From a virus: 42,383 bases of DNA. The stretch lies in the IMG/VR virus record IMGVR_UViG_3300034072_000964, positions 1-42,383 of that record. One strand, 5' to 3'. This document shows, piece by piece, positions 128 to 32,009 of this stretch. Below the pieces are notes generated by a model. The model was not told where the DNA came from, did no database searches, and saw nothing but the letters and a program-made list of their open reading frames with translations. The translations under genes and the position numbers were made by a program. How positions within the stretch are numbered: position 1 is the stretch's first letter; each line of letters opens with the position of its first letter.

Positions 128-1442
128 CTGATGTTTGAAACGTACCGCCGACAAGGGCCGGATCTCTATCATCTGTTGCGGAAACAATAGATGTAATTCT
201 TGTTGAGCTTCCAGGGGATGAATAGCGAGTCCATACAGTAACTGTTGAAATCCTTACAGCATTTGCTGGAAGCGCTGGAGCTTTTGCATTCCCCGCGGTT
301 GATCCGATCTGAGCGCCTTTGACAACGTAAATTGATCCTGAATATATATCAACAACAACAAGATCTTTTCTATATCCCATTGCCGTTTGTAAATTAAACC
401 CAACAACAGTAGCTGGAGCAAAGGCCAGATCATTTGCTGGAAATGCTTTATAAGATGAAGCGCCTGGACTCCATAGCGGGGAATCTGCTGGCGTTCCAAA
501 TGGCGCATACTGTAATTCCAACTGGACATTGCCGGAAACGCGCTTTCCCTCTTTGTTGAAAAAAGCAAGCCCTTTTGGGAAAGTTACATCAACGCTGGCT
601 TCATCAATTCCGGACTCTGTTGAGCGGACTGTATAGCCATCAACCTGTTTAAGCAAAATATTATAATCAGTTTGCTTTACGTCATTTGGATATAAAAGAG
701 TCGTTGTGTTTAAATCGCCTTCCAGCTTATGTTCAATTTCAAAATCGCTGAATTGCTCAATTGGAGTTTCGCCAATTTTTAAATCAGTCAATACGCCTTT
801 AGGCCCATAGCCCCATGTAAAGAGCTGGCGGACATATTGATCATTGTCCTGGGTTTCAGTGTATGGCTGAGCGGCCTGAAGCGGGAACATCCTGTTACGG
901 CCAAGGCAAATTGGAACAACGCCATAAAGGTTTATATCGTTTCTAGCACCTTCAATAAATTGAGTCGGGCTTTCCGATGCGTTGGATGAATTGGCATTGC
1001 CAGCATTTGATGGTTTAGGCGGCGGGGCTAGAGCTGATACGGCCAGTTTACCCAGAACGCCAACAGCGCCTGTAACAAGAGATATACCGATTGTTGAAGT
1101 AATGCCCATAGCGCCAGCAAGCGCCGCGCCAGCATACGGGGCCGCGATCAAAACGGCGATTGAAAGAATGCTGGCAATCGGGTTTTTCTTTCCGCCGCCG
1201 CCCTGAGGAACAATATTTATATTTACGGTTGTTCCCAATTTTGGCCTTACAGATCGCCAAAATTCTTGCGGTACTATTTGCCCATTTATCATGGCAACCG
1301 CCCCAACAGCGCCAATTAAGCGCTCTGGGCATATATCATCAATGATCTGTTGGATTGTCGATCCTGGGGCCGCGGCGCGCTGGATACGCGCATTAGAAAA
1401 TGGCAAAGGGGACGCGAAAACAGGAATGGCGGCTTTATTCAT
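1..1442 (-). CDS. Host-specificity / central tail-tip protein (lambda gpJ-like with gpI-like N-terminus), 5' part; the same gene continues at 42256 down to 39571
   Basis: The minus frame with codon starts = 2 mod 3 is open from ATG 1442-1440 to base 1 (hand-checked over 1-240 and 960-1442). The start overlaps the upstream stop as tATGAATAA. The frame is in phase across the junction with ORF 39571..42282. N-terminus: MNKAAIPVFASPLPF...VPQGGGGKKNPIASILSIAVLIAAPYAGAALAGAMG. It is absent from the ORF track because it runs off the window. Confidence 0.75.
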   Translation of the reverse strand, partial: MNKAAIPVFASPLPFSNARIQRAAAPGSTIQQIIDDICPERLIGAVGAVAMINGQIVPQEFWRSVRPKLGTTVNINIVPQGGGGKKNPIASILSIAVLIAAPYAGAALAGAMGITSTIGISLVTGAVGVLGKLAVSALAPPPKPSNAGNANSSNASESPTQFIEGARNDINLYGVVPICLGRNRMFPLQAAQPYTETQDNDQYVRQLFTWGYGPKGVLTDLKIGETPIEQFSDFEIEHKLEGDLNTTTLLYPNDVKQTDYNILLKQVDGYTVRSTESGIDEASVDVTFPKGLAFFNKEGKRVSGNVQLELQYAPFGTPADSPLWSPGASSYKAFPANDLAFAPATVVGFNLQTAMGYRKDLVVVDIYSGSIYVVKGAQIGSTAGNAKAPALPANAVRISTVTVWTRYSSPGSSTRITSIVSATDDRDPALVGGTFQTSADFAPSVTGANSLHISGGSITVNQLNITASQTEALRRSVRVV

Positions 1443-1833
1443 ATCTTGCAAATCCAACAACTTTGTTTTTCCAGCGCAAAGAATCATAGCGCTCAATGAC
1501 AGTATTTATATCCTTGGCGCAATGTATCATAAGCCCTGGCTTAATGACAATTCCGCAATGCATGGGAACGCCGCGCATCTTCAAAATTATGATGTCAAAA
1601 GTAGCCGGAACCTCTGGGGCTTTCCATTTACTATTGCGCTCATTTTGTATCGTTTGCCCCAGAATATCCCTATCGTTGGTACTTTGATATACATCCAAAT
1701 AATCCGGCAATATGATGTTTCTTTCTTTAGGATATGCCAAAAAGGGCAATCCCCAGCAATCTACTCCATCCCAGCCGCGGCCTTTTTCCTTGAACGGGAT
1801 AGGCAAATATTTTTGATACCAATTTTCATTCAT
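1435..1833 (-). CDS. Tail-associated NlpC/P60 peptidase (lambda gpK / GTA g14 position)
   Basis: Track ORF 1435..1938 was trimmed to ATG 1833, just after the upstream TAG at 1835-1837. GRGWDGVDCWGL (Cys) and MHCGIV (His) fit the NlpC/P60 signature. The gene follows the L-like gene. Confidence 0.75.
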   Translation of the reverse strand: MNENWYQKYLPIPFKEKGRGWDGVDCWGLPFLAYPKERNIILPDYLDVYQSTNDRDILGQTIQNERNSKWKAPEVPATFDIIILKMRGVPMHCGIVIKPGLMIHCAKDINTVIERYDSLRWKNKVVGFARYE

Positions 1834-1834
1834 T

Positions 1835-2335
1835 CTAAAATAATCCTGGAAAATCTGAAGGGGTAAAGCGCCGCGCCGGAAATGGCTCCAGATCATAATA
1901 CTCAACAGAAAGATCCCCTGAAACCGTAAACGCATCATACGTTACTTTTTCAAGTTTGAAATCTTCAATCGTTATTTCCGGATTGTCCGGATCTGAAGCC
2001 AGAATAATTTCAATCTTTATTGATAAAGCTGAGTTTGCTTTTCTTACAGCATAAACAATTTGCCTATCAATATTATCAATCTGGATATTGGCTCTTGCGA
2101 CTCCAGAATCATCCTGATTGGGCAAATCAATTGCAAATGGAAGAAATATAAATTCCATGCCGCGGGAAAGAACGCCTTTAACGCCAGCATCCGGCAAATC
2201 ATCTGGAAGATCTGAAGCGACTCGAATATCTTCCAGAAAATCCGGATGCGATATTGTCAACAAAATAATAAAAACTTCAGATGTTGACTGAGCATAAACA
2301 GCTTGCTTTGCGGCTTTGGATAACTGGCGCGGCAT
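1835..2335 (-). CDS. Minor tail protein, DUF1833-like (lambda gpL position)
   Basis: 166 aa. The FIFLPFAIDLPNQDD...ANIQIDNIDRQI pattern is recalled from DUF1833 tail proteins. It lies between the M-like and K-like genes. Confidence 0.55.
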   Translation of the reverse strand: MPRQLSKAAKQAVYAQSTSEVFIILLTISHPDFLEDIRVASDLPDDLPDAGVKGVLSRGMEFIFLPFAIDLPNQDDSGVARANIQIDNIDRQIVYAVRKANSALSIKIEIILASDPDNPEITIEDFKLEKVTYDAFTVSGDLSVEYYDLEPFPARRFTPSDFPGLF

Positions 2336-2682
2336 TAGGGCAAGATCTCCAATGAAACTGATGCGAGATAAGCAACGCCGCCCCGCTCAGAATATGCTGG
2401 CGGCTCAACAAATCGCGCTGATACGGTTGCGAGAGTCCGCGGATGTTCAAAATCAAATTCAACCGATCCGGAAAATGTTGTTACAACATAAAAATCATCA
2501 AGCGTTTGCAATTCAGCTTTTGTAAGCATGAGCGAAAAAGCAACGGGCCTTACATCAGCTGTTGTACGGCGGCGGACTTTATCCGGCCCTTTATCCATAG
2601 ATGTTCTTAAAATATTATCAGGCGGCGACTCTGAAAAGGAATCCAGAAGAGGCGCTGGTAAAGTATTTGGCCATGCAACCAT
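2335..2682 (-). CDS. Distal/minor tail protein (lambda gpM position)
   Basis: 115 aa with ATG at 2682, immediately downstream of the tape measure stop. Called mainly from size and position. Confidence 0.45.
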   Translation of the reverse strand: MVAWPNTLPAPLLDSFSESPPDNILRTSMDKGPDKVRRRTTADVRPVAFSLMLTKAELQTLDDFYVVTTFSGSVEFDFEHPRTLATVSARFVEPPAYSERGGVAYLASVSLEILP

Positions 2683-2688
2683 TTTAAA

Positions 2689-4572
2689 TTATCTCCTTTT
2701 CAATCCTCTATTTTGCTGAGCGCGCAAAGATTGATTTGTTTTTGTTCCTGGCGTTGCTAATTTCTGGGCAACCAATTCATCAACCATGATTTCAAGATTC
2801 TTTCCGTCATTAGTTTTTCTGGCCGTAACTTGAGCATCAGATTTATTATTATTTATAATAACATCCCCATAGCCTGAATCTTTCCCCACCTGAGAAGCCG
2901 GAACAATCTCTTCCCCTTTATGAATTTTTGCAACCATATCCCGCGGAACATTTGGAGTCCCTGATGCGAAAGATGGAAGAGTCCACGCTCCATCCCAATT
3001 AGATGGAAGATCTGAAGCGCCAGAGCCGCCGCCAAAAATACCGCTGAATATGCCGCCCAGATCCAGGCTCCCCAACGCATCTTCAATAGGTTTATAAACC
3101 GTCATACGCAAAAGAATTTTTTCAATATCCTTGAATAATCCATCCAGAACATCAGAAAGATTTTTCCCCTCAATAACAGCATCTTCAAAAGCTGATTTAA
3201 CGGAGTCGCCAACGTCTTTAAGCGCCTCTTGAACAAGTTTTTGGCGCTCTAGTACATTTGTTGATTTTTCAATAGCATCCAGATAAGCATTAACTTGATT
3301 TTGTTGCTCGGCGCTTAGCGTGATTCCATCAGCCGCCAAACGATTCATTATCTCTTGCGCTTTGGTTGCTTTATTGATTGCGGACTCTTTTTGCCCCCAC
3401 ATGGAAACCTGAGTATTAAGAGTATCCGATTCCTGTTTTAATCCAGAGAGAACATCCTTTATTTTTTCAGCGGCTTTTTTCGCGGAATCCTCGGCGCTTT
3501 TATTTGCATCAGTTGAAACATATGTTGGAATATCTGGAAGCTGGGAATCGTCAAACAATTCTCTTGATGGGCCATAAGGAACCGCCCCTGTTTTTGTTCC
3601 AACAGGTTTTTGTTTCCGCGGCCTTCCCGTTAAACGAGTCATAAATGCATCAAACTTGCTTAAAGATTCATCACTTGGCAAAACGCTATTTATGCGCGCT
3701 TGATTCCGCTTAGACATTTCATCATAAGCGCCTATGAATTTTCCAAGGGCGTTTGCCGCGGCAACAATATTTGCGGCCATATCTCCAACAACTTCGCCAA
3801 CATTTCTGATGTTTTGAGCAAACTGAGGATCTGAATAAATATCTCTTACAGCTCCAGATGAATTTATAAATTCATCCAACAATCCGGCTGTAAAATTATT
3901 TTTGATTGTTGAGGCCAAGGCATCGAATTGATCGCCTAATTTATCAGCGGCCAATATTGTATCCGTATCAATTACATTGCCAGTTCTTTGAGCTTCAGCG
4001 GCAAATGCTTTTAGGCCATCAACTCCATCAGATAAAAGGGGCAAAAGTTTTGCGCCCATTTTGTTCCCAAAAGCATCATTTACGATTGCCAATTTTTCTG
4101 TTGCAGTTCTGGCATTTTTAACCGCATCAGCAATGCTATAAATCGCCTCATTGGTATTGGCGTATTTTAATTTTCCATCCGCAATCTGGGCATTCAATTT
4201 TATGAATGCCGTTTCCAATTCATCATTGGACATTCCAGAAAGTTTTGCGGCATATTGATATTCCTGCAATCTCTTAATTGATATTTGCAATCTATCAGAT
4301 GTATCTTTCAATGCCGCGGCATGATCAACAGCGCCTTTAGTTAAGGCATAAATTCCGGTTGCGGCCTTGATAGCCGTATCCAAGGCCAAATAACCCGCAA
4401 CCAATCCTGTAACTTTTTTCCCAACCGCATCAAAACTTGATGCGCTTTTGTCAAGAGCTTTACCCCAAACATTAGCGCTATTGTTAAGAGCTTTATCGGC
4501 TTTTTTTAATCCGGCCTCAAAACGGGAAGTATTGGCGGTTAAATCAGCTGTTAATTGTGCTACCTGAGTCAA
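2689..4572 (-). CDS. Tail tape measure protein
   Basis: 627 aa, Ala/Lys/Asp-rich and helical-looking, directly after the G/GT chaperone pair. TTG start at 4572 with GAGGA 9 nt upstream. About 94 nm of tail by the 0.15 nm per residue rule. Confidence 0.85.
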   Translation of the reverse strand: MTQVAQLTADLTANTSRFEAGLKKADKALNNSANVWGKALDKSASSFDAVGKKVTGLVAGYLALDTAIKAATGIYALTKGAVDHAAALKDTSDRLQISIKRLQEYQYAAKLSGMSNDELETAFIKLNAQIADGKLKYANTNEAIYSIADAVKNARTATEKLAIVNDAFGNKMGAKLLPLLSDGVDGLKAFAAEAQRTGNVIDTDTILAADKLGDQFDALASTIKNNFTAGLLDEFINSSGAVRDIYSDPQFAQNIRNVGEVVGDMAANIVAAANALGKFIGAYDEMSKRNQARINSVLPSDESLSKFDAFMTRLTGRPRKQKPVGTKTGAVPYGPSRELFDDSQLPDIPTYVSTDANKSAEDSAKKAAEKIKDVLSGLKQESDTLNTQVSMWGQKESAINKATKAQEIMNRLAADGITLSAEQQNQVNAYLDAIEKSTNVLERQKLVQEALKDVGDSVKSAFEDAVIEGKNLSDVLDGLFKDIEKILLRMTVYKPIEDALGSLDLGGIFSGIFGGGSGASDLPSNWDGAWTLPSFASGTPNVPRDMVAKIHKGEEIVPASQVGKDSGYGDVIINNNKSDAQVTARKTNDGKNLEIMVDELVAQKLATPGTKTNQSLRAQQNRGLKRR

Positions 4573-4882
4573 GGCCCGTTTCCTCTTTTAATTTATCGTT
4601 ATAAATAAACAGCCTTCTCTTTATATCATCTTCATCAATGGCTTTCACGGCCTTTTTAAAGCCCGTATAAAACTCTTTGAGAGGCGGGGGTTTAACTCCA
4701 TCCTTGGACAAAACAGCGCCATGCCACATCATCCAGGCTTGCCGATCATGCTCTTGCTCAAGGGCAAGGCCATATGCAATTTGGGCCTGTTGCGTTTGCC
4801 ACGGAGTCAAATGCCAAAATTCAGATACTGTTATTCCGGCAATGAATGATTTTTTAAGAGCTTCTGTTATGAAGTCTTTTTT
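4544..4882 (-). CDS. Tail assembly chaperone, -1 frame extension (gpT-like part of a G-T fusion)
   Basis: The -1 frame, translated by hand from the slippery site, is open to 4544 (..KKDFITEALKKSFIAGITVSEFWHLTPWQTQQ..). The M of track ORF 4544..4810 is an internal TTG. The predicted fusion is about 227 aa. Confidence 0.7.
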   Translation of the reverse strand, partial: KKDFITEALKKSFIAGITVSEFWHLTPWQTQQAQIAYGLALEQEHDRQAWMMWHGAVLSKDGVKPPPLKEFYTGFKKAVKAIDEDDIKRRLFIYNDKLKEETGLDSGSTINS

Positions 4883-5226
4883 TTGGACTCATCATCAGGC
4901 TTTGGATCTTCATCAATATCAGGCGCGCCATCAGGCCCCCAATAAGAAAATTCCAAAGCCTGATTAATTGCGGTTGTAATAGGAACAATGGGCGGGGAGA
5001 TCTTCATAATATCTTCAGGGGTATATTCATCCGGCTGATGTTTCTGAAGCCCCGCCGCAATGACAATGGATAAATCACTTGGACTCTTAGCAATTAAATT
5101 GGCAAGACCCTTTTCACCCAACTCGGATTTAATTCCGGCTATTGCCGCCCAATCGTAAAAAAGTTTTACCTTTTTTCCGCCAAGGGTAATTTCTTTTGAG
5201 CCAAGATATTTGTTATCCATTATCAA
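4867..5226 (-). CDS. Tail assembly chaperone (gpG-like / GTA g10-like)
   Basis: 119 aa between the major tail protein and the tape measure. It ends ..DESKKKTS over the slippery A run. Confidence 0.75.
   Translation of the reverse strand: MIMDNKYLGSKEITLGGKKVKLFYDWAAIAGIKSELGEKGLANLIAKSPSDLSIVIAAGLQKHQPDEYTPEDIMKISPPIVPITTAINQALEFSYWGPDGAPDIDEDPKPDDESKKKTS
4876..4884 (-). promoter_or_regulatory. -1 programmed ribosomal frameshift slippery site A_AAA_AAG inside an A8 run
   Basis: The minus strand reads TCC AAA AAA AAG ACT TCA TAA. The heptamer lies 2 codons before the chaperone stop, and the -1 frame is open downstream. Confidence 0.7.
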
Positions 5227-5236
5227 TCATTCCCGA

Positions 5237-5662
5237 TTAAGCAAAAGTTACATCCCCAGAGATTCTGAGCGTAAAGCTAGAATCAACTTTGGAGTCAACA
5301 GATCCGGAAACTGGAGCATTCATAACGTATGCTTTGAATGTTGCAGTTGAGGCATCCGAAAAAGTTACTTTGAAAGTTTTCAAAGCGCGGGATGCTTTAG
5401 CGGCGCGCAACGCGGCTTGGCCTGGGGCCGATGCATCTTTGACATAGGAAACATCAATGTTGAAGTTGCCGAAATCCTGCAAACCCATCAGCCATTCTTT
5501 AGCTGTTGATTTAAGATTGGTTTTATCAATCTCAGCGGCTTGGCCATCAAAGCCGTTAAACGCTGTTACCTCTTCGATTGACTGATAAACAGCTGGGGGG
5601 CCAACAGCCGTTTGAATGGCAATATCAAAGCCCTGGGCGGCTATAGCAACGGAATCTGGCAT
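5237..5662 (-). CDS. Major tail protein (TP901-1 / GTA g9-like)
   Basis: 141 aa. Canonical position between the tail terminator and the chaperones. The ..FNGFDGQAAEIDKTNLKS.. region is typical of this family as I recall it. Confidence 0.7.
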   Translation of the reverse strand: MPDSVAIAAQGFDIAIQTAVGPPAVYQSIEEVTAFNGFDGQAAEIDKTNLKSTAKEWLMGLQDFGNFNIDVSYVKDASAPGQAALRAAKASRALKTFKVTFSDASTATFKAYVMNAPVSGSVDSKVDSSFTLRISGDVTFA

Positions 5663-14310: not shown

Positions 14311-14346
14311 AAGCAAAAGAAAAGCCCCCAATTAAGAGGGCTTTTC
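14311..14346 (-). terminator. Putative intrinsic terminator between the 78-aa gene and the portal gene
   Basis: The minus strand reads GAAAAGCCC-(10-nt loop)-GGGCTTTTC followed by TTTTGCTT. Confidence 0.45.
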
Positions 14347-14361
14347 CCAGCAAAACCGCAA

Positions 14362-14598
14362 TTAAGCGGCGGAATCAGCTTCTGTAATGTCCAGATAGTA
14401 TTCCTTGCCTTCAGCAAATTTGCCTTTTACAGCATCATTATCAACCGTAATTTGCAAAGATCCGTTTGGCGTTGCTTTCGCAAAAGATTCATTCTCTTCA
14501 GTTCCGCCCAGAACGGCTGAGAATGTTACTTGTTCCGATGTTTCGCCCAGCTGAACAACTGATTGGCAACGGAATTTGGCGCGGGTTACAGATTTCAT
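14362..14598 (-). CDS. Hypothetical small protein between terL and portal
   Basis: 78 aa (MKSVTRAKFRCQSVVQLGE...GKEYYLDITEA). Followed by a hairpin with a T run. Confidence 0.6.
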   Translation of the reverse strand: MKSVTRAKFRCQSVVQLGETSEQVTFSAVLGGTEENESFAKATPNGSLQITVDNDAVKGKFAEGKEYYLDITEADSAA

Positions 14599-14629: not shown

Positions 14630-16180
14630 TCAGCAAACTATAGGCGAATTTAAAAAGCCGTCAAGGTTATCATCCGGCTCTGGCGGCTTCTCAGCAACAA
14701 ACTCAGAAATGGCCAGCGCAACAGCTCCATCAATCCGGCCTGTTGATTTTTTCTTATTCAATTTTCTGTTATCCGTTGCATCCGTTTCAACTGATGAATT
14801 GGCAACGCACATTGTTAAAACAGGATGGCCCCCATGCCTGTAAGATCCATTCAGTAATTTCTTTTCCATGCCTTCGATGGCAACGGTCATATCTTTGAAT
14901 CCTTGTCCGACTTCAACAAGGTTTATATTAAAATCAATTTTATCCAGCTCTTTTTTCAACAGCGCTATGCGCCATCTATCGTATCCCATAGCGACAATAT
15001 CAACATCCTTGAGGATCTGGGCCATGCGTAAAGCGACAAACTCATAATCAATCGTATGCCCTGGGCAAGCCTCAATATATCCTTGCTGATACCAAACATC
15101 ATATGGCGCTCTATCCCGCTTTGCGCGCTCAATTAAATTCTCTAATGGAGTCCAGAAATAAGAATATACCGGAAAAGAATTTGTTTCCGGATGATAACCC
15201 TGCAAAACCATAGCCGTTAAATCCGTTTTACCGGAAAGATCCAATCCGCCTGTTATGTTGATGCATTCAGAAATAGGCGGCGGATTTGCCCCTGATTTTT
15301 TCCAGATCTCTTGCGTTACAAACGGGCTGGAAGTTGTAACCCGCATATTTAGATTTAAGTTTTTAAAAGTATTTGTAAAAGTTGGCATCCGATTTGCTTT
15401 ATCGGCTTGCTTTCTCATATCGGCTTCAGATCTGAATATTCCCAGCGCTGGATTTGCTTTCTTCCATTGCTTTTCATCCATTACATCCGCATCAGCATCA
15501 GCGCAATGAACATGGCAAACCATCTTTTCCGGTTTATTCGTTTCATAATCATCAATCAAAATGCTCAACAGATCGCCATTGTTCTGGGCCTGAGTCGAAA
15601 TATAAAACAGCAAAGCATTTTTATATGCTCCCTGGGCCGTTGTAATCGCATCAATAAAATCCGATTGCGGCCCTTTGACTTGCCCAACTTCATCCAGAAT
15701 GGCAACAATCGGGCTTTTACCATGCGCGGTTTTGGCATCAGCTGATGTTGCCTGATATTCAACATTCATTTTCAAGCCAATAAGTTTTTTCCCCGATGGA
15801 ATAATTTTAATTCTGTCCCTGAGCTTTGGAGATAGATTTATTGTTTTGCTGGCAAGGTTAAAGACTTCAGCGGCTTGCTCTTTGCTCATAGCGCCAGAAA
15901 CGATACGGGAATTTTCAACCGCTTCAGGCCCAACCAAATGGGCCAATACGATAAAAGCAATCAAAGCGGTTTTTGCATTTTTCCGCGCAATCGAAAGAAT
16001 GGCTGTATCTGTAATGAACGGGTTATCATATACATCAATGATAAAATCTTTTTGAAACTGGAGCAATACAACAGGCTGGCCCATCAGATCGCCTTCAGGA
16101 ACAACGCAAAAACGCTCTATAAATGCAATGACGCGCTGGCCGCGGGTTAGTGGCTTAGGTTGTTGATTCTTCATTATCAT
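14630..16180 (-). CDS. terL: Terminase large subunit (Terminase_1-like)
   Basis: 516 aa. LLQFQKDFI... and the deviant Walker A in SIARKNAKTALIAF are present, with a nuclease-type C-terminal half. It lies upstream of the portal. Confidence 0.9.
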   Translation of the reverse strand: MIMKNQQPKPLTRGQRVIAFIERFCVVPEGDLMGQPVVLLQFQKDFIIDVYDNPFITDTAILSIARKNAKTALIAFIVLAHLVGPEAVENSRIVSGAMSKEQAAEVFNLASKTINLSPKLRDRIKIIPSGKKLIGLKMNVEYQATSADAKTAHGKSPIVAILDEVGQVKGPQSDFIDAITTAQGAYKNALLFYISTQAQNNGDLLSILIDDYETNKPEKMVCHVHCADADADVMDEKQWKKANPALGIFRSEADMRKQADKANRMPTFTNTFKNLNLNMRVTTSSPFVTQEIWKKSGANPPPISECINITGGLDLSGKTDLTAMVLQGYHPETNSFPVYSYFWTPLENLIERAKRDRAPYDVWYQQGYIEACPGHTIDYEFVALRMAQILKDVDIVAMGYDRWRIALLKKELDKIDFNINLVEVGQGFKDMTVAIEGMEKKLLNGSYRHGGHPVLTMCVANSSVETDATDNRKLNKKKSTGRIDGAVALAISEFVAEKPPEPDDNLDGFLNSPIVC

Positions 16181-16940
16181 CTATAAAGCATCCACAACCG
16201 CCGAAATCATATTTTTCATCCGGCTCAAGCTCCATCTTTTCAAATTGTTCCAGCGTAATGTAATGCTGTTTTTTGTTTATTGTTTTTCTCAGAAACGGAT
16301 GATCCAGATCCGGATTTTCTTCAACAAGTTTTTTCTGTTGCTGTTTATGCCATTCAAAACGCTCAGGGAAATTTTCCCTTAATTTTGCAAATTGAGCCAA
16401 TCCAGCGCGGACGCAAAAACCGCCGCAATTGTTATGAGCGAAACCCATCTTATATAATCTAGGCAATTCAATGTTGTATTGCTTTAAAAGATCAAGCCTT
16501 TGGCCATGAGTCATAAAGCTCCCTCTTTCGCAAAGAGGCGCTATAACTTTATAATCTGGATTATTTTTTTGCGCTCTGGGAAGCCTATGCTCTTCCTCAA
16601 GATCAATTCCCAAAACAAGAATAGGCGGCGATTCAAAAGTTTTTAGATATTTTTCCATCTGGACTCGCTTCAGGAAAATTGAGCATTGAGCTTTGCGCGT
16701 ATTGCCTTGATATTTTACATCCCTGAAAACTTCCCACGGATTCCGGCCATCAGTTAATTTTACAAGTGGTAAATTTAACTTGGCCGCGCTTTCGTCTAAA
16801 AATCTGTAAAGATCTTCATCTTCAATAAGTGTATCGCAAAATGCCAGCTGTATATCAGCTGGATCAACTTGCTGTTTTAAAATATGAGCCGCGGCAAAAG
16901 ATCCAAGACCACCGGAATAAGAAACAACATATTTCATCAA
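16155..16940 (-). CDS. PP-loop ATP pyrophosphatase / PAPS-reductase-like protein
   Basis: 261 aa. The N-terminal VVSYSGGLGS is an SGGxDS-type PP-loop. The C-terminal half has the Cys pairs NNCGGFC and GGCGCF. It overlaps terS by 4 nt and terL by 26 nt. Confidence 0.65.
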   Translation of the reverse strand: MMKYVVSYSGGLGSFAAAHILKQQVDPADIQLAFCDTLIEDEDLYRFLDESAAKLNLPLVKLTDGRNPWEVFRDVKYQGNTRKAQCSIFLKRVQMEKYLKTFESPPILVLGIDLEEEHRLPRAQKNNPDYKVIAPLCERGSFMTHGQRLDLLKQYNIELPRLYKMGFAHNNCGGFCVRAGLAQFAKLRENFPERFEWHKQQQKKLVEENPDLDHPFLRKTINKKQHYITLEQFEKMELEPDEKYDFGGCGCFIDDNEESTT

Positions 16941-17437
16941 TTCAAACTCCCAGGGCTTGCCAACAGATCATCATCATCCATTTCATGCGCCGCTTCAATA
17001 TCACGGCCCATCTTGCGGCGCTTTGCAACATCCCGCGCCTCGCCCATTACAGCGCGCCCATGAATGGATAGACTCCGGCGCATGGTTGAAATAATGGTTG
17101 CCTCCATAGCAACAGCGGCGCGCCTTGGATTTGATACTGGCCCCTTTGCCCCTTCGATTGTTGGGCCTTCAGCGCGCAGATCCTGAATATCGGAATCGTA
17201 ATCCGTCATGGTTTTTGCCAGCAATGCGGCCAGCCGGATTCTATGCGGAGTCCATTCCAGCTTTGGGGCCTCTTGAATTATCTCTTCAAAATTTTTTGTA
17301 TCGGCCTCAGTCATTTCAATATTTGATGGCGGTTTTATTTTCTTCCCCGCATGGCGCGCAACCTCAGCCGCCCCCGTTACGGAATCAATCCTTGACTTTT
17401 TGTCTTTTCCTTTGTTGGATTTTTTGGCGGGGGGCAT
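16937..17437 (-). CDS. terS: Terminase small subunit (P27-family-like)
   Basis: 166 aa. A basic N-terminus and a helical body, at the first position of the packaging operon, downstream of an HNH gene as in HK97-like cos phages. Confidence 0.55.
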   Translation of the reverse strand: MPPAKKSNKGKDKKSRIDSVTGAAEVARHAGKKIKPPSNIEMTEADTKNFEEIIQEAPKLEWTPHRIRLAALLAKTMTDYDSDIQDLRAEGPTIEGAKGPVSNPRRAAVAMEATIISTMRRSLSIHGRAVMGEARDVAKRRKMGRDIEAAHEMDDDDLLASPGSLN

Positions 17438-17517: not shown

Positions 17518-17763
17518 TTACCCACCCCTCCCCATCAGGGTTTCCATATCAATTTTTTTATAGTTTCCGTATCTTTCCTTGCTTTCATAATAAAATCTTA
17601 ACACTTCATCAGAGAAATGCAAAGCCAACTTACCATGAGCAATAATCATTTGACTCTTATTTAATTCAGTCAATTGATTCGCAAAAATAATATCTTTATG
17701 AGATTGGAGAATTACATCATGCCATAAAGGATCTAACAACAGAGTCATATGCATCTTAGCCAT
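17518..17763 (-). CDS. Hypothetical protein
   Basis: 81 aa. Overlaps the upstream ORF by 8 nt. Confidence 0.5.
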   Translation of the reverse strand: MAKMHMTLLLDPLWHDVILQSHKDIIFANQLTELNKSQMIIAHGKLALHFSDEVLRFYYESKERYGNYKKIDMETLMGRGG

Positions 17764-17962
17764 GCTGTTGTTCCCTTATAGATTGGGCAACCATTCGATT
17801 AAAGCCTTGAGTAAATGAAACTTGCTCAGGGTATTTGCCAGCATAGAAAGCCTTGGCCATATCATCTGTATGTTGCTGATGAATAACAACCCATCCATTA
17901 GCCCTGAGCATACGCAACTGATCAACAGTTATGATATGCAATACCTTCAGCTTATCGGCCAT
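17756..17962 (-). CDS. Hypothetical protein
   Basis: 68 aa. The ATG lies 4 nt after the upstream TAG. Confidence 0.5.
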   Translation of the reverse strand: MADKLKVLHIITVDQLRMLRANGWVVIHQQHTDDMAKAFYAGKYPEQVSFTQGFNRMVAQSIREQQHG

Positions 17963-17968
17963 GCTCTA

Positions 17969-18139
17969 TCCCTCTATAAATTGGCAATGCGCTGATATAG
18001 TAACAGTTGGCAATTCATTAACAGCGCATCTGGTATTAATGGATACCACGCATGGAATCTGCTGGCCATCAGGCATAAGCGCAACCATGATACCGTCTTT
18101 AACTTTAACTCTTAAAATATTATTTAATTGATCGGCCAT
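17969..18139 (-). CDS. Hypothetical small protein (below the ORF-track cutoff)
   Basis: Hand translation from ATG 18139 gives MADQLNNILRVKVKDGIMVALMPDGQQIPCVVSINTRCAVNELPTVTISAHCQFIEG (56 aa). It fills the gap between the HNH gene and the next ORF. Confidence 0.45.
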
Positions 18140-18411
18140 CCATCGACTCCTGTTACCTTTACATCCTTGCCATTCTCTATCCGTTGCTTAGTCGCGCTAT
18201 GATGCGGATTGCATAGGGCTTGCCAGTTATTCTTTGTATCCCAGAATAGTTTCTGATCGCCCCTATGCGGAATGATATGATCAACAACTGAAGCGCGGCA
18301 TATGCGGCCCTCTTCCATACACATCCGGCAATTCGGATTGTTCTGAAGAAAAGTTTTCTTGGCTTTTTGCCAACGGCCATCATATCCGCGCTCAGCTGTC
18401 TTTTTACGCAT
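18124..18411 (-). CDS. HNH endonuclease (terminase-associated type)
   Basis: 95 aa. CRMC...VDHIIPHRGD...NWQALCNPHH is an HNH/zinc-finger motif. It lies upstream of the terminase genes. Confidence 0.85.
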   Translation of the reverse strand: MRKKTAERGYDGRWQKAKKTFLQNNPNCRMCMEEGRICRASVVDHIIPHRGDQKLFWDTKNNWQALCNPHHSATKQRIENGKDVKVTGVDGWPIN

Positions 18412-25658: not shown

Positions 25659-26065
25659 TGGTTATTTCATCCCCGATACCCGCTAAAGATCAAGCGCAAT
25701 GGGCAAAGATTTTTTCCGAGTCCGGTTATTCGATTGAATGGCTTCACAAGGAAACCGGAATCAATGTTCCGAGTCTGAATAAATATATTTACAATTCGCG
25801 CAAGCCGCGCAAATTGAACCGGATAAAAATGGAGAAAGCCATGAGTAAAATGAGCAAAGGGGAAAAGAAACTTCAGCGCCATCCGTCATTTGGATATGCC
25901 ACAGCTGAGCAGGTTGAATTGCTAAATTCCCTTGGCCTTGGCCCCCAGCGCGATTTCATACTTTCGCAAATCGAAAAACAAAATAAATCAGGCGGCAAAA
26001 TCGTTTTTGATGTTCCTGAGAATTTGAAAAAGAAAACTAAAAAAGAGAATGGAGATTTAATATAA
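25658..26065 (+). CDS. Hypothetical protein with possible helix-turn-helix
   Basis: 135 aa. YSIEWLHKETGINVPSLNKYIYNSRKP looks like an HTH. Confidence 0.45.
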   Translation: MVISSPIPAKDQAQWAKIFSESGYSIEWLHKETGINVPSLNKYIYNSRKPRKLNRIKMEKAMSKMSKGEKKLQRHPSFGYATAEQVELLNSLGLGPQRDFILSQIEKQNKSGGKIVFDVPENLKKKTKKENGDLI

Positions 26066-26598
26066 TGGGCAAAAGATCTGATTTCAAACGAGTCAAAAAT
26101 GACAAATATATAACGCCGATTGAAGGTGTAAACCCATTTGCCCATTACTTTGGATCTGGCAAGTATGTTGAGCCATGCGCGGCAAAAGGCCAGCTGATTG
26201 AAAAGCTCAAAATAATCAAAAGATTGAAATGCTCAGCGGCTTTTGATATTGGAACCGCATCCGGCATTGTAAAAAAGCGGGATGCATTGACTTTGAAAAA
26301 ATCAGATCTGAAGGGCGCTAAAAAAATTATTACAAACCCGCCTTGGAAGCGCGAGATCCTGCATAAAATGATTGAACATTTTATGAATCTTGTTCCTGAA
26401 GTATGGCTTTTATTTGATGCTGATTGGCCCCATACAAAACAAAGCGCGGATCTGATTAAGCATTGCAAGCTGATAATTTCCGTTGGAAGGCTGAAATGGA
26501 TTCCAAAGTCAAAATCTGTTGGCAAGGATAATTGCTGTTGGTACTTATTCAGCAAACGCCATACGGATGGGCCTAAATTTATTGGCAGAAAAAAATAA
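26065..26598 (+). CDS. N6-adenine (or N4-cytosine) DNA methyltransferase, small orphan type
   Basis: 177 aa. VEPCAAKG is motif I-like, followed by ITNPPWK, the (D/N)PP(Y/F/W) catalytic motif IV. No adjacent restriction gene. Confidence 0.7.
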   Translation: MGKRSDFKRVKNDKYITPIEGVNPFAHYFGSGKYVEPCAAKGQLIEKLKIIKRLKCSAAFDIGTASGIVKKRDALTLKKSDLKGAKKIITNPPWKREILHKMIEHFMNLVPEVWLLFDADWPHTKQSADLIKHCKLIISVGRLKWIPKSKSVGKDNCCWYLFSKRHTDGPKFIGRKK

Positions 26599-29214: not shown

Positions 29215-29341
29215 AATCTATGTTTACGATAATGGCAAGCCAGTTGAAACTGTTGAAAAAACAGATGCGACTGAAGCCAATACTTTTATCAATGAAAAAA
29301 TTCAAGCCGGATATAAGGTAAATTCATCATGGGAAAAATGA
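29201..29341 (+). CDS. Hypothetical small protein (below the ORF-track cutoff)
   Basis: Hand translation gives MPKIKIYVYDNGKPVETVEKTDATEANTFINEKIQAGYKVNSSWEK (46 aa). AAGGAAA RBS. Overlaps both neighbours. Confidence 0.45.
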   Translation: MPKIKIYVYDNGKPVETVEKTDATEANTFINEKIQAGYKVNSSWEK

Positions 29342-30021
29342 GAGCTTCAAATATTATTATTGGATGCGAAGAATCATTTACGATAGCTGGGGCTTTCCGT
29401 AGGGGGGGGTACAAGGCTTTTTCATGCGATACGGAACCGACTCGCGGCAATCCGGATTATCATTTCCAGATGGATATTTTCATTGTCCTTAAAGGCGGAT
29501 GGCTCAGGACTCAATCTGGAAAGCGGGTTTATATTGATAAATGGGATTTTGGAATCTTTCATCCGCCATGTACTTTCATAGCAAACTCCAGCGCAAAACA
29601 CCTTTACAAAGGCATGAATAAAGAGAACGGCAAAAATATGAAACGCTGGAAAGAAATGAAGGCTGGAGCTTTATTCTTTAAACGCTTGCTGGAAGCGGAT
29701 ATTGAAATGATCGCTGTTGAAAATCCTGTAATGCTGGGCTATGCGCTGGCAATCATAGGACAAGATCCAGCGCAAACTTTTCAGCCTTGGCAACATGGCC
29801 ATATGGAAGTAAAGCGGACTTGCTTATGGCTTAAAAATTTGCCGCCAATCAAAGAAACAAAAAATGTATATAATGCCATGATGAAATTGCCTTACGCTGA
29901 GCGCGCTAAAGTTCATCATTGCGCGCCAGGGCCAAACAGGGCAAAGATCCGATCAACAACGTATCCTGGCTTTGCCAGAGCTGTTGTAAAACAATGGGGC
30001 AAGCTCTTAACTAAAATTTAA
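29329..30021 (+). CDS. Compact C5-cytosine-methyltransferase-like protein
   Basis: 230 aa. FHPPCTF is a PC catalytic motif IV and VENPV is an ENV-like motif VI. TCLWLKNLPP and RSTTYPGFARAVVKQW are recalled from a phage C5-MTase-like family. Motif I is atypical. Confidence 0.55.
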   Translation: MGKMRASNIIIGCEESFTIAGAFRRGGYKAFSCDTEPTRGNPDYHFQMDIFIVLKGGWLRTQSGKRVYIDKWDFGIFHPPCTFIANSSAKHLYKGMNKENGKNMKRWKEMKAGALFFKRLLEADIEMIAVENPVMLGYALAIIGQDPAQTFQPWQHGHMEVKRTCLWLKNLPPIKETKNVYNAMMKLPYAERAKVHHCAPGPNRAKIRSTTYPGFARAVVKQWGKLLTKI

Positions 30022-31490: not shown

Positions 31491-32009
31491 ATGAAAGATA
31501 AACGCATGACGATGAACCGAAAAATCCAACATCCAACATTTATGGGCCGCGCCCCTTTTGTAATTGGTACTGATGAAAATCCGTATCTGTTGCGCTGGTT
31601 TTTGATTCCAAAAAACCGGATCTTCAATATCTATCTCCATAAGTTTTGCCGCTCAGATGATGATAGAGCGTTGCATGATCATCCTTGGCTCTTCAATGCC
31701 AGCTTTCTTTTGCGCGGGGATTATATAGAACATTCTTTTGTTGATCCGAAAAACTGGCAATCAAATCCAATGCAATGGCAGGACTTAAGAAAAGAAGGGG
31801 CCAGGAAATTCCGTTTTGGCCGCGCCCCGCATCGGATTCAATTATTGACTGATGAAACCGGAAAAGAAAAACCAGTTTGGACAATCTTCATTACAGGGCC
31901 AAAGCTATGGCGCTGGGGCTTCTATTGTCCAAAGGGCTGGAAGTTATGGGAAAAATTTGTTGATAAGCGCGAAGGCGGAAATCATGTTGGAGAGGGATGC
32001 GGGGAATGA
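31491..32009 (+). CDS. Hypothetical protein with HDHPW motif (possible cupin-like metal site)
   Basis: 172 aa. YLLRWFLIPKNRIFNIYLHKFCRSDDDRALHDHPWLFNASFLLRGDYIEH. Confidence 0.55.
   Translation: MKDKRMTMNRKIQHPTFMGRAPFVIGTDENPYLLRWFLIPKNRIFNIYLHKFCRSDDDRALHDHPWLFNASFLLRGDYIEHSFVDPKNWQSNPMQWQDLRKEGARKFRFGRAPHRIQLLTDETGKEKPVWTIFITGPKLWRWGFYCPKGWKLWEKFVDKREGGNHVGEGCGE

Follow-up and report, generated by a model that had tools for sequence, protein, structure and literature searches.

The DNA considered here (hereafter the window) is the whole of IMG/VR virus record IMGVR_UViG_3300034072_000964, positions 1 to 42,383, which looks like a complete genome of an HK97-like siphophage. Its minus strand holds the entire packaging operon and, wedged between the genes for the small (terS) and the large (terL) terminase subunits, an open reading frame (ORF) whose product resembles phosphoadenosine phosphosulfate (PAPS) reductases. 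What would such an enzyme do for a phage, and does its place inside the terminase operon tell anything about its function? An initial annotation, made from the sequence alone, had described an enzyme of the PP-loop class and had proposed either chemistry coupled to DNA packaging (DNA modification or anti-restriction) or an accessory role alongside the terminase.

The explanation that we favour, and that we hold tentatively, is that the gene encodes a standalone, late-expressed, cysteine-dependent sulfur-transfer enzyme similar to SspD and DndC, which would help the phage to evade host defence by acting on a nucleic-acid or nucleotide target. The evidence comes from the fold and family of the protein, the conservation of its motifs and cysteines, its closeness to SspD and the way in which the gene sits in the operon; each is taken up below, together with the other explanations that it bears on.

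Results

Fold and family

The protein matches Pfam PF01507 (PAPS_reduct) over residues 3-166, scoring 36.3 bits where the cutoff is 22.5 (E=7e-9), and PHROG family phrog_424 ("phosphoadenosine phosphosulfate reductase") over residues 1-252 (E=2.9e-51). An AlphaFold2 model built from 34 homologues is confident (pLDDT 90.9, pTM 0.87), and its best PDB matches in Foldseek are PAPS and adenosine phosphosulfate (APS) reductases, with a TM score of about 0.5 over about 180 residues. A Foldseek probability of 1.00 was obtained for these reductases, as well as for argininosuccinate synthetase, GMP synthetase, LarE, MnmA, TilS and CysD, while the best structural matches in BFVD are phage "PAPS reductases" and QueC; the last ~80 residues lie outside the Foldseek matches. 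Given this confident model and its matches to PAPS/APS reductases and other PP-loop enzymes, the PP-loop/PAPS-reductase fold is confirmed at the level of a predicted structure and, since both family profiles agree with it, the class initially proposed for the protein stands.

Homologues form 3,538 clusters at 90% identity (E<=1e-5), and sequence comparison therefore identifies the ORF (261 codons in its longest form, 260 from the ATG), in agreement with the initial annotation, as a genuine gene and not a chance reading frame. An exhaustive profile search over 1.84 billion representatives (50% identity) gave 3,094 matches at E<=1e-3, of which 651 reach E<=1e-30. Among isolated phages, 106 records contain homologues (60 of them mycobacteriophages, the others infecting Rhizobium, Bacillus, Microcystis and more), mostly annotated "PAPS reductase-like domain protein". 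The gene class is a recognised one, being routinely annotated in more than 100 isolated phages, and its superfamily includes the lambda-type NinC, a very distant relative at the limit of detection (22% identity, E=7e-5), whose genes, like those of many homologues, close the early region. Of the annotated homologues in phages that we inspected, none lies between terS and terL. The protein is an additional member of a large, already catalogued phage family, and only its position between the terminase genes is unusual. As a separate observation, the mycobacteriophage homologues are inconsistently named (e.g. MG944221.1, OL549190.1, KF493880.1), with names that include PAPS reductase-like and hypothetical protein; the labels 'tRNA methyltransferase' and 'ribonucleotide reductase', also carried by some of them, receive no support from these analyses.

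Conserved motifs, inteins and fusions

Conservation was computed over 120 clusters, 43-100% identical. Residues conserved in at least 98% of them are S8, G9, G10, S13, D35, E39, D42, R45, G64, R65, W68, C85, L89, K90, E115, R118, Y162, H168, N169, N170, C171, G173, C175, G179, G247, C248 and C250 (motif coordinates are given in Table 1). Five cysteines are invariant (C85, C171, C175, C248 and C250, at least 99% of the clusters): the two tight pairs initially noted, in NNCGGFC (residues 169-175) and GGCGCF (residues 246-251), and C85, which brings the count from four to five. The accompanying suggestion that these cysteines could bind a metal or an Fe-S centre agrees with their invariance and with their alignment to positions used for Fe-S binding or sulfur relay in relatives.

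The SGGLGS loop aligns with SGGKDS of SspD and with SSFGIQ of CysH. Its position 12 is G, A, S or N in all 120 members and never the Asp of the canonical SGGxDS, so that of the PP-loop initially described the fold and S8-G9-G10-S13 are retained, with SGGxGS in place of SGGxDS. ATP pyrophosphatase activity, made likely by a loop as rich in glycine as that of ATP-using PP-loop enzymes, is not assured, because this Asp is missing in every member. In the nucleotide-binding motif of residues 35-46, the positions D35, T36, E39, D40, D42 and R45 vary little or not at all. The Cys at the C85 position and the accompanying Lys are also kept in SspD, in PptA (see below) and in the homologue of Vibrio phage 168E36-1. 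Further along, HNNCGGFC, which may be a catalytic or Fe-S centre, has its counterparts in SGCTFC (SspD) and NNNCVGC (PptA), and GGCGC aligns with GGGACITC (SspD), CSLVC (PptA) and CGIIC (Vibrio phage 168E36-1).

Among 146 representatives of the family at 50% identity, at least 11 (~8%) carry inteins inserted exactly at N170/C171, which corresponds to window position 16425/16426 (P0155, P0162, P0164, P0191, P0206, P0216, P0222, P0229, P0234, P0239 and P0248). The inserts are mini-inteins as well as LAGLIDADG-containing ones, e.g. AHNN/CFSGDT...LTGN/CGGGC (slashes mark the junctions), and such a placement is, judged from the sequence, typical of homing into a catalytic motif. Additionally, the family domain is fused to a class-I S-adenosylmethionine (SAM) methyltransferase, located at the N-terminus in P0163 and at the C-terminus in P0284, and in P0152 an N-terminal calcineurin-like phosphoesterase is followed, before the PAPS-like domain, by a segment that by eye resembles a helix-hairpin-helix. 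These fusions recall the PAPS::Dam protein of a Vibrio phage (see below) and are in keeping with an enzyme that modifies nucleic acids or nucleotides as part of an anti-defence gene set.

SspD, DndC and CysH

The only PADLOC match of the protein is SspD, the ATP pyrophosphatase of the PAPS-reductase family in the SspABCD system of DNA phosphorothioation (E=3.8e-14, residues 2-206), and hhalign aligns the family profile with the SspD of the SspA-SspB-SspC-SspD-SspE cluster on Vibrio scophthalmi plasmid pVS127 over 202 columns (99.05% probability, E=1.9e-18). The two have the same fold and domain order, a glycine-rich SGG loop and three corresponding cysteine motifs, which in SspD read WCTIRMK (a Cys-x4-Lys motif at the C85 position), SGCTFC and GGGACITC; in the multiple alignment C85, C175 and the C-terminal pair fall on SspD cysteines, Fe-S binding being a prediction. 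They differ in that SspD has the full SGGKDS loop whereas the phrog_424-type family has SGGxGS, in the central motif (CxxC in SGCTFC of SspD, CxxxC in HNNCGGFC of the window protein), in a longer C-terminal insert of SspD and, overall, in sequence (only ~25-28% identity). Moreover, SspD is always encoded together with SspA, SspB and SspC, whereas the gene in the window stands alone. By sequence comparison, SspD is the closest characterised relative of the window protein.

DndC and BrxP, the subunits with a PAPS-reductase domain in the Dnd and BREX type 4 phosphorothioation systems, gave no PADLOC match at E<=0.01. They share the PAPS_reduct domain superfamily with the window protein but exceed it in size, and their partners are DndD/E or BrxC (PMC12914056). 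DndC has been described as a PP-loop enzyme with a [4Fe-4S] cluster held by three cysteines and a cysteine dyad that relays sulfur (PMC10853773), and by analogy this layout, a three-Cys cluster plus a Cys dyad, is the one that may be proposed for the window protein.

The label carried by the family suggests something else: that the gene is a true auxiliary metabolic gene (AMG), encoding a PAPS/APS reductase which makes sulfite and boosts the sulfur assimilation of the host during infection. Many virome papers take this view, such phage genes having been treated as AMGs (PMC13369170; 10.64898/2026.02.18.706556), the PAPS_reduct match is above the Pfam cutoff, CysH and APS reductases are the top Foldseek matches, the DT..E..YRF motif is common to both, and the CysH loop likewise lacks the PP-loop Asp. 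APS reductases combine an Fe-S cluster with a C-terminal catalytic Cys, and the five cysteines could mimic this layout. Nevertheless, the tests specific for CysH fail. The NCBIfam equivalog models for cysH, APS reductase and PAPS reductase, as well as the DndC model, have no match at E<=0.01; the family profile reaches a solved CysH in the PDB with E=0.33 and over its first 58 residues only; and hhalign against E. coli CysH covers 96 N-terminal columns (86%, E=5e-6), against the 202 obtained for SspD. Additionally, the loop keeps SGG where CysH has SFG (SSFGIQ), the C-terminus is FGGCGCF in 119/120 clusters, with GGCGC in place of the ECGLH tail of CysH, and the extra ~80-residue C-terminal region is unmatched by CysH or APS reductase. 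The neighbours of the family are replication, packaging and anti-defence genes, and never sulfate-assimilation genes, and the preprint on Bifidobacterium itself remarks that the other pathway steps are missing from the hosts (10.64898/2026.02.18.706556). As judged from sequence, the window protein is not a CysH orthologue, and we regard a role in host sulfur assimilation as improbable.

PptA and anti-Dnd phage proteins

The best sequence match in the PDB is entry 21fy, "PptA" (phmmer E=2e-11; family profile E=1.5e-24), for which our literature search found no paper explaining the function. With ~200 PptA residues rebuilt from the alignment as query, tblastn found a perfect match (100% identity) in Vibrio phage vB_VhaP_VH-5, to a "hypothetical protein" whose gene directly follows that of the phage RNA polymerase. 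Vibrio phages 168E36-1 and 236O40-1 encode standalone PAPS-reductase homologues that share 36-37% identity with PptA. These proteins resemble the window protein in being phage-encoded, standalone and about 250-290 residues long, in being encoded after early/replication-type genes, and in having the C85-type Cys/Lys motif, an NNNCxGC motif and a C-terminal Cys pair; they differ by a degenerate PP-loop (FSCGAPS, YSHGAAS) and by the lack of the DT..ED acidic motif. Since they are ~23-25% identical to it, we consider them a sister subfamily.

Evidence on the role of such domains in infection comes from Vibrio crassostreae phages, in which moving a fusion of a PAPS domain to Dam (p0018) together with its neighbour p0019 into a phage that was sensitive led to escape from host Dnd (10.1101/2021.05.05.442762); the PAPS::Dam protein of phage 44E38.1 is a 479-residue fusion that was tested together with the second gene. 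PAPS reductases are also present in Aca-regulated anti-defence operons (PMC13551039).

Insertion into the terminase operon

The frame found in the ORF list (16155..16940) begins at an in-frame TTG at 16940, and the ATG at 16937 is the next codon; the latter is the likely start, since it gives the N-terminus MKYVV(SYSGG) found in homologues and agrees with the public gene call. The minus-strand junction reads AAT TGA TGA AAT, in which the terS stop codon (16939-16937) and the ATG share 1 nt. The overlap with terS had been given as 4 nt (ATGA); it amounts to 4 nt (TTGA) only when counted from the TTG, and the string ATGA does not occur there. At the other end, the 26-nt overlap with terL holds by the ORF coordinates, the terL ATG at 16180 falling in the last 26 nt of the gene (20 nt if the second terL ATG is used). 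The identity of both flanking genes is upheld by their profile and domain matches (Table 1), and the TerS protein is 45% identical to that of phage 16-3 and 30% to that of HK97.

No own Shine-Dalgarno sequence for terL is evident from reading the junction, and the interval from terS to terL holds no convincing internal terminator and promoter-like sites only at chance level. Because start and stop codons overlap, and no terminator or above-chance promoter stands between the genes, terS, the PAPS-like gene and terL very probably form one transcription unit, and their translation is probably coupled; together with the candidate Shine-Dalgarno sequence inside terS, this supports the earlier view of the gene as an integral part of the packaging operon. 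Composition gives no sign of recent acquisition (third-position GC content, GC3, 0.318; z = -1.07 among 52 window genes); GC3 and codon usage were set aside as acquisition evidence, the former being no outlier and codon-usage distance being uninformative for short genes.

In related modules of the HK97/16-3 type, terS is directly followed by terL in 8/8 cases: HK97, Rhizobium phages 16-3 and RHph_X2_25, and the five closest metagenomic relatives of the TerS (L101-L105, 44-56% identity). Insertion polymorphism was thus assessed through TerS protein relatives; TerL pattern scans of viral and genome contig collections found no close relatives of the phage, and a blastn search of isolated phages with the packaging region gave at best terL matches of ~64%. 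Since none of the eight modules has the insert, comparison of their sequences marks the position of the gene between terS and terL as a derived insertion, and it follows that the terminase works without the PAPS-like protein.

The genomic settings of homologues were surveyed in 74 of 492 IMG/VR viral loci, 71 of the 74 with downstream ORFs. No conserved partner gene was found, as no PHROG family occurs more than four times among the neighbours scanned, 141 on either side. On the upstream side helicase, primase, polymerase and HNH genes are enriched. The downstream side is heterogeneous, terminase genes being occasional: among the 71 loci there are three matches to phrog_2, two to phrog_5653 (at least one of them on an ORF that also matches phrog_2) and two to the terS family phrog_57, and in two cases (L045, L048) the neighbouring terL runs on the opposite strand. 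The gene of the closest homologue (74% identical) is transcribed divergently from a terS gene; other homologues are found in groups of small early genes, close to lysis genes or within a head-gene block, and those of cultured phages adjoin primase, helicase, dCMP deaminase or cytosine methyltransferase genes. Given such variable settings, the gene behaves like a mobile cassette that consists of one gene.

The order recurs in one unrelated contig, L056 (IMGVR_UViG_3300005805_005754, 349-5271), with a terS-like gene, a PAPS-like gene, terL and a portal gene of the SU10/P22 type, and overlaps of 23 nt and 8 nt. Its terS-like ORF (183 residues, with an N-terminus resembling a helix-turn-helix) has no PHROG or Pfam match, and its TerL is of the phrog_2 type, a different family from that of the window. 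The terS/terL junction has therefore been used at least twice; apart from this contig, the survey of terS/terL placement called for at the outset shows no recurrent association with terminase genes.

These observations bear on the proposal that the protein works with TerS and TerL, either modifying DNA during packaging or regulating the terminase. In its favour, the gene shares overlaps with terS and with terL, the latter lacks an obvious Shine-Dalgarno sequence and may need translation of the PAPS-like gene, contig L056 has the same order with overlaps, and known phosphorothioation systems require, besides an ATPase, a partner that nicks or recognises DNA (PMC12914056), functions that TerL and TerS could, on our reasoning, provide. 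However, the eight related modules dispense with the gene, the few terminase neighbours in the survey include genes on the opposite strand, the 74%-identical homologue points away from its terS, and most homologues are located in early/replication regions. With an uninterrupted terS-terL order in the related modules and no conserved neighbour in the 74 loci, the packaging-coupled or terminase-accessory role initially put forward has poor support, and we consider it very unlikely. A more specific version, to which we would give slightly less credence still, is that an SspD-like enzyme recruited to the terminase writes sulfur into the genome (as phosphorothioate or as a thio-base) during packaging, both here and, independently, in L056. 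In this scheme TerS would give DNA recognition and TerL would give the ATPase/translocase and nuclease activities, replacing SspB/SspC or DndD/DndE; if true, it would amount to packaging-coupled DNA modification by a single added gene.

Table 1. Positions in the window of the gene under study, its motifs and the neighbouring packaging genes.
Feature	Position	Strand	Remarks
Gene for PAPS-reductase-fold, SspD-like enzyme	16155..16937	-	ATG start, 260 residues; public gene call has the same coordinates
PP-loop-like SGGLGS, residues 8-13	16899..16916	-	S8, G9, G10, S13 in at least 118/120 clusters
DTLIEDEDLYRF, nucleotide-binding motif, residues 35-46	16800..16835	-	aligns with TDTGYLFPETYRF of E. 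coli CysH
CSIFLK motif	16668..16685	-	invariant C85, L89, K90; C85 in 120/120 clusters
HNNCGGFC, residues 168-175	16413..16436	-	H168, N169, N170, C171, G173, C175 at least 99% conserved
GGCGC, residues 246-250	16188..16202	-	G247, C248, C250 in 119/120 clusters
Shine-Dalgarno-like GGGAG	16947..16951	-	9 nt upstream of the ATG, within the 3' end of terS; read from the sequence
terS, HK97/Hendrixvirinae type	16937..17437	-	166 residues; phrog_5601, E=6e-34; Pfam PF26841 Hendrixvirinae_terminase_S (precomputed table)
terL	14630..16180	-	516 residues; TerL_ATPase and TerL_nuclease domains; 57.6% identical to HK97 TerL
HNH endonuclease, usual HK97-type terminase partner	18124..18411	-	Pfam HNH; phrog_2323, E=1e-34

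Other features of the window

According to Pfam and PHROG matches, the portal gene comes after terL, and an HNH endonuclease gene and a MazG-like gene lie upstream of terS; Rhizobium phage RHph_X2_25 shares the order HNH-terS-terL-portal. Between terL and portal there is a 78-residue ORF (14362-14598, minus strand) with no Pfam match, a second extra element in an HK97-like module (in L103 and L104 the portal gene directly follows terL), and after it lies the strongest terminator-like hairpin of the region (14317-14348, minus strand; a 13-bp stem plus a T-run). The interval between the HNH gene and terS (17518-18139, minus strand), where an HK97-type cos site would be expected, holds three small ORFs (81, 68 and 57 residues), the same three being called on the public contig; one of them has a sub-threshold match to T3 gene 1.05.

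Further genes encode primase, helicase, Sak4, SSB, a Cas4-like exonuclease and two methyltransferase-like proteins. The latter (26065-26598 and 29329-30021, plus strand) match the PHROG 'DNA methyltransferase' families phrog_799 and phrog_757, with no Pfam match at E<=0.001; given these two genes, the phage may carry several DNA-modification functions. A 172-residue ORF (31491-32009, plus strand) matches phrog_4786, 'cysteine dioxygenase' (E=2e-49), without Pfam support, and was therefore set aside as a link to sulfur chemistry. There are no tRNA genes in the window and no integrase among the ORFs scanned.

Discussion

In the explanation that we favour, the PP-loop-like site would bind an adenine nucleotide, probably ATP, and use it to activate an oxygen of the substrate; C85, C171 and C175 would hold an Fe-S centre, and the flexible C-terminal pair C248-G-C250 would carry the sulfur, probably obtained from a host cysteine desulfurase. 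The target would most likely be the phage DNA itself (backbone or base) or else a nucleotide or nucleic-acid component of host immunity, and the role would be an escape from host restriction or defence and not sulfate assimilation. Inserted at the terS/terL junction, and therefore co-transcribed and probably translationally coupled with the terminase, the enzyme would be made late, during DNA packaging. Conservation of the PP-loop and cysteines in at least 99% of the clusters, the inteins at N170/C171, the methyltransferase fusions and the replication-gene neighbours all support this reading, which coincides with the suggestion of DNA modification or anti-restriction made in the initial annotation.

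Several observations weigh against it. Besides the PAPS-domain protein, every phosphorothioation system characterised depends on an NTPase (DndD, SspC, BrxC) and on a partner that targets DNA (PMC12914056), and neither a phosphorothioation partner nor a desulfurase was found among the 26 window ORFs scanned with PHROG and Pfam, nor does the family have a conserved neighbour in the 74 loci. Since no NTPase and no DNA-binding or nicking partner (SspB, DndE) was found there, SspD and DndC should be taken as the closest functional analogues only, and not as a sign that the gene belongs to such a system. The Asp of the canonical PP-loop is missing throughout the family, and HNNCGGFC and the last ~55 residues, where the window protein differs from SspD, fall outside the hhalign alignment. 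As for the relatives, PptA and the homologue of phage 168E36-1 represent a sister subfamily whose PP-loop is degenerate, the anti-Dnd protein is a distant fusion, tested with a second gene, and the sulfur-transfer function of the phrog_424-type subfamily is itself one suggested by sequence comparison.

A different possibility, to which we give real if clearly lesser credence, is that the protein performs adenylation-type chemistry on a nucleotide, a nucleobase or a tRNA, the link to DNA sulfur being merely ancestral. Examples would be base thiolation (TtcA, TtuA, MnmA), amidation (QueC) or the modification or destruction of an immune signalling nucleotide. The structural matches to MnmA, TilS, LarE, GMP synthetase and the phage QueC of BFVD are in line with it, as are the nature of the fusion partners (a generic Methyltransf_23, not a classical DNA methyltransferase, and a calcineurin-like phosphoesterase) and the MazG-type NTP pyrophosphohydrolases encoded nearby in the window, in RHph_X2_24 and in Vibrio phage 168E36-1; an enzyme that works alone, with nothing to target it to DNA, would also suit a small-molecule or tRNA substrate better. 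Yet similarity in sequence and profile is highest to the PAPS-reductase/SspD clade and not to TtcA, TilS or QueC, there is no Pfam ATP_bind_3 or QueC match, and the only functional data for the superfamily concern Dnd evasion (10.1101/2021.05.05.442762). A sulfur-transfer enzyme directed against host defence remains our preferred, if tentative, explanation.

The finding defines no new kind of system, and the structure of a phage relative (PptA, PDB 21fy) already exists. What the locus offers is a natural case in which a terminase junction, invariant elsewhere, has had a foreign gene translationally spliced into it and, since removal of that gene restores the HK97 arrangement, a clean genetic handle. 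Its wider meaning concerns the family, whose members are among the genes most often reported as viral AMGs (cysH), with ecological conclusions being drawn from that label. Considering the failure of the CysH-specific tests, the closeness to SspD and the five invariant cysteines, together with the inteins in the HNNC motif, the methyltransferase fusions and the behaviour as a mobile cassette, the cysH/AMG label is probably wrong for the phrog_424-type subfamily, and an enzyme that is directed at nucleic acids or counters host defence is the likelier identity of the protein.

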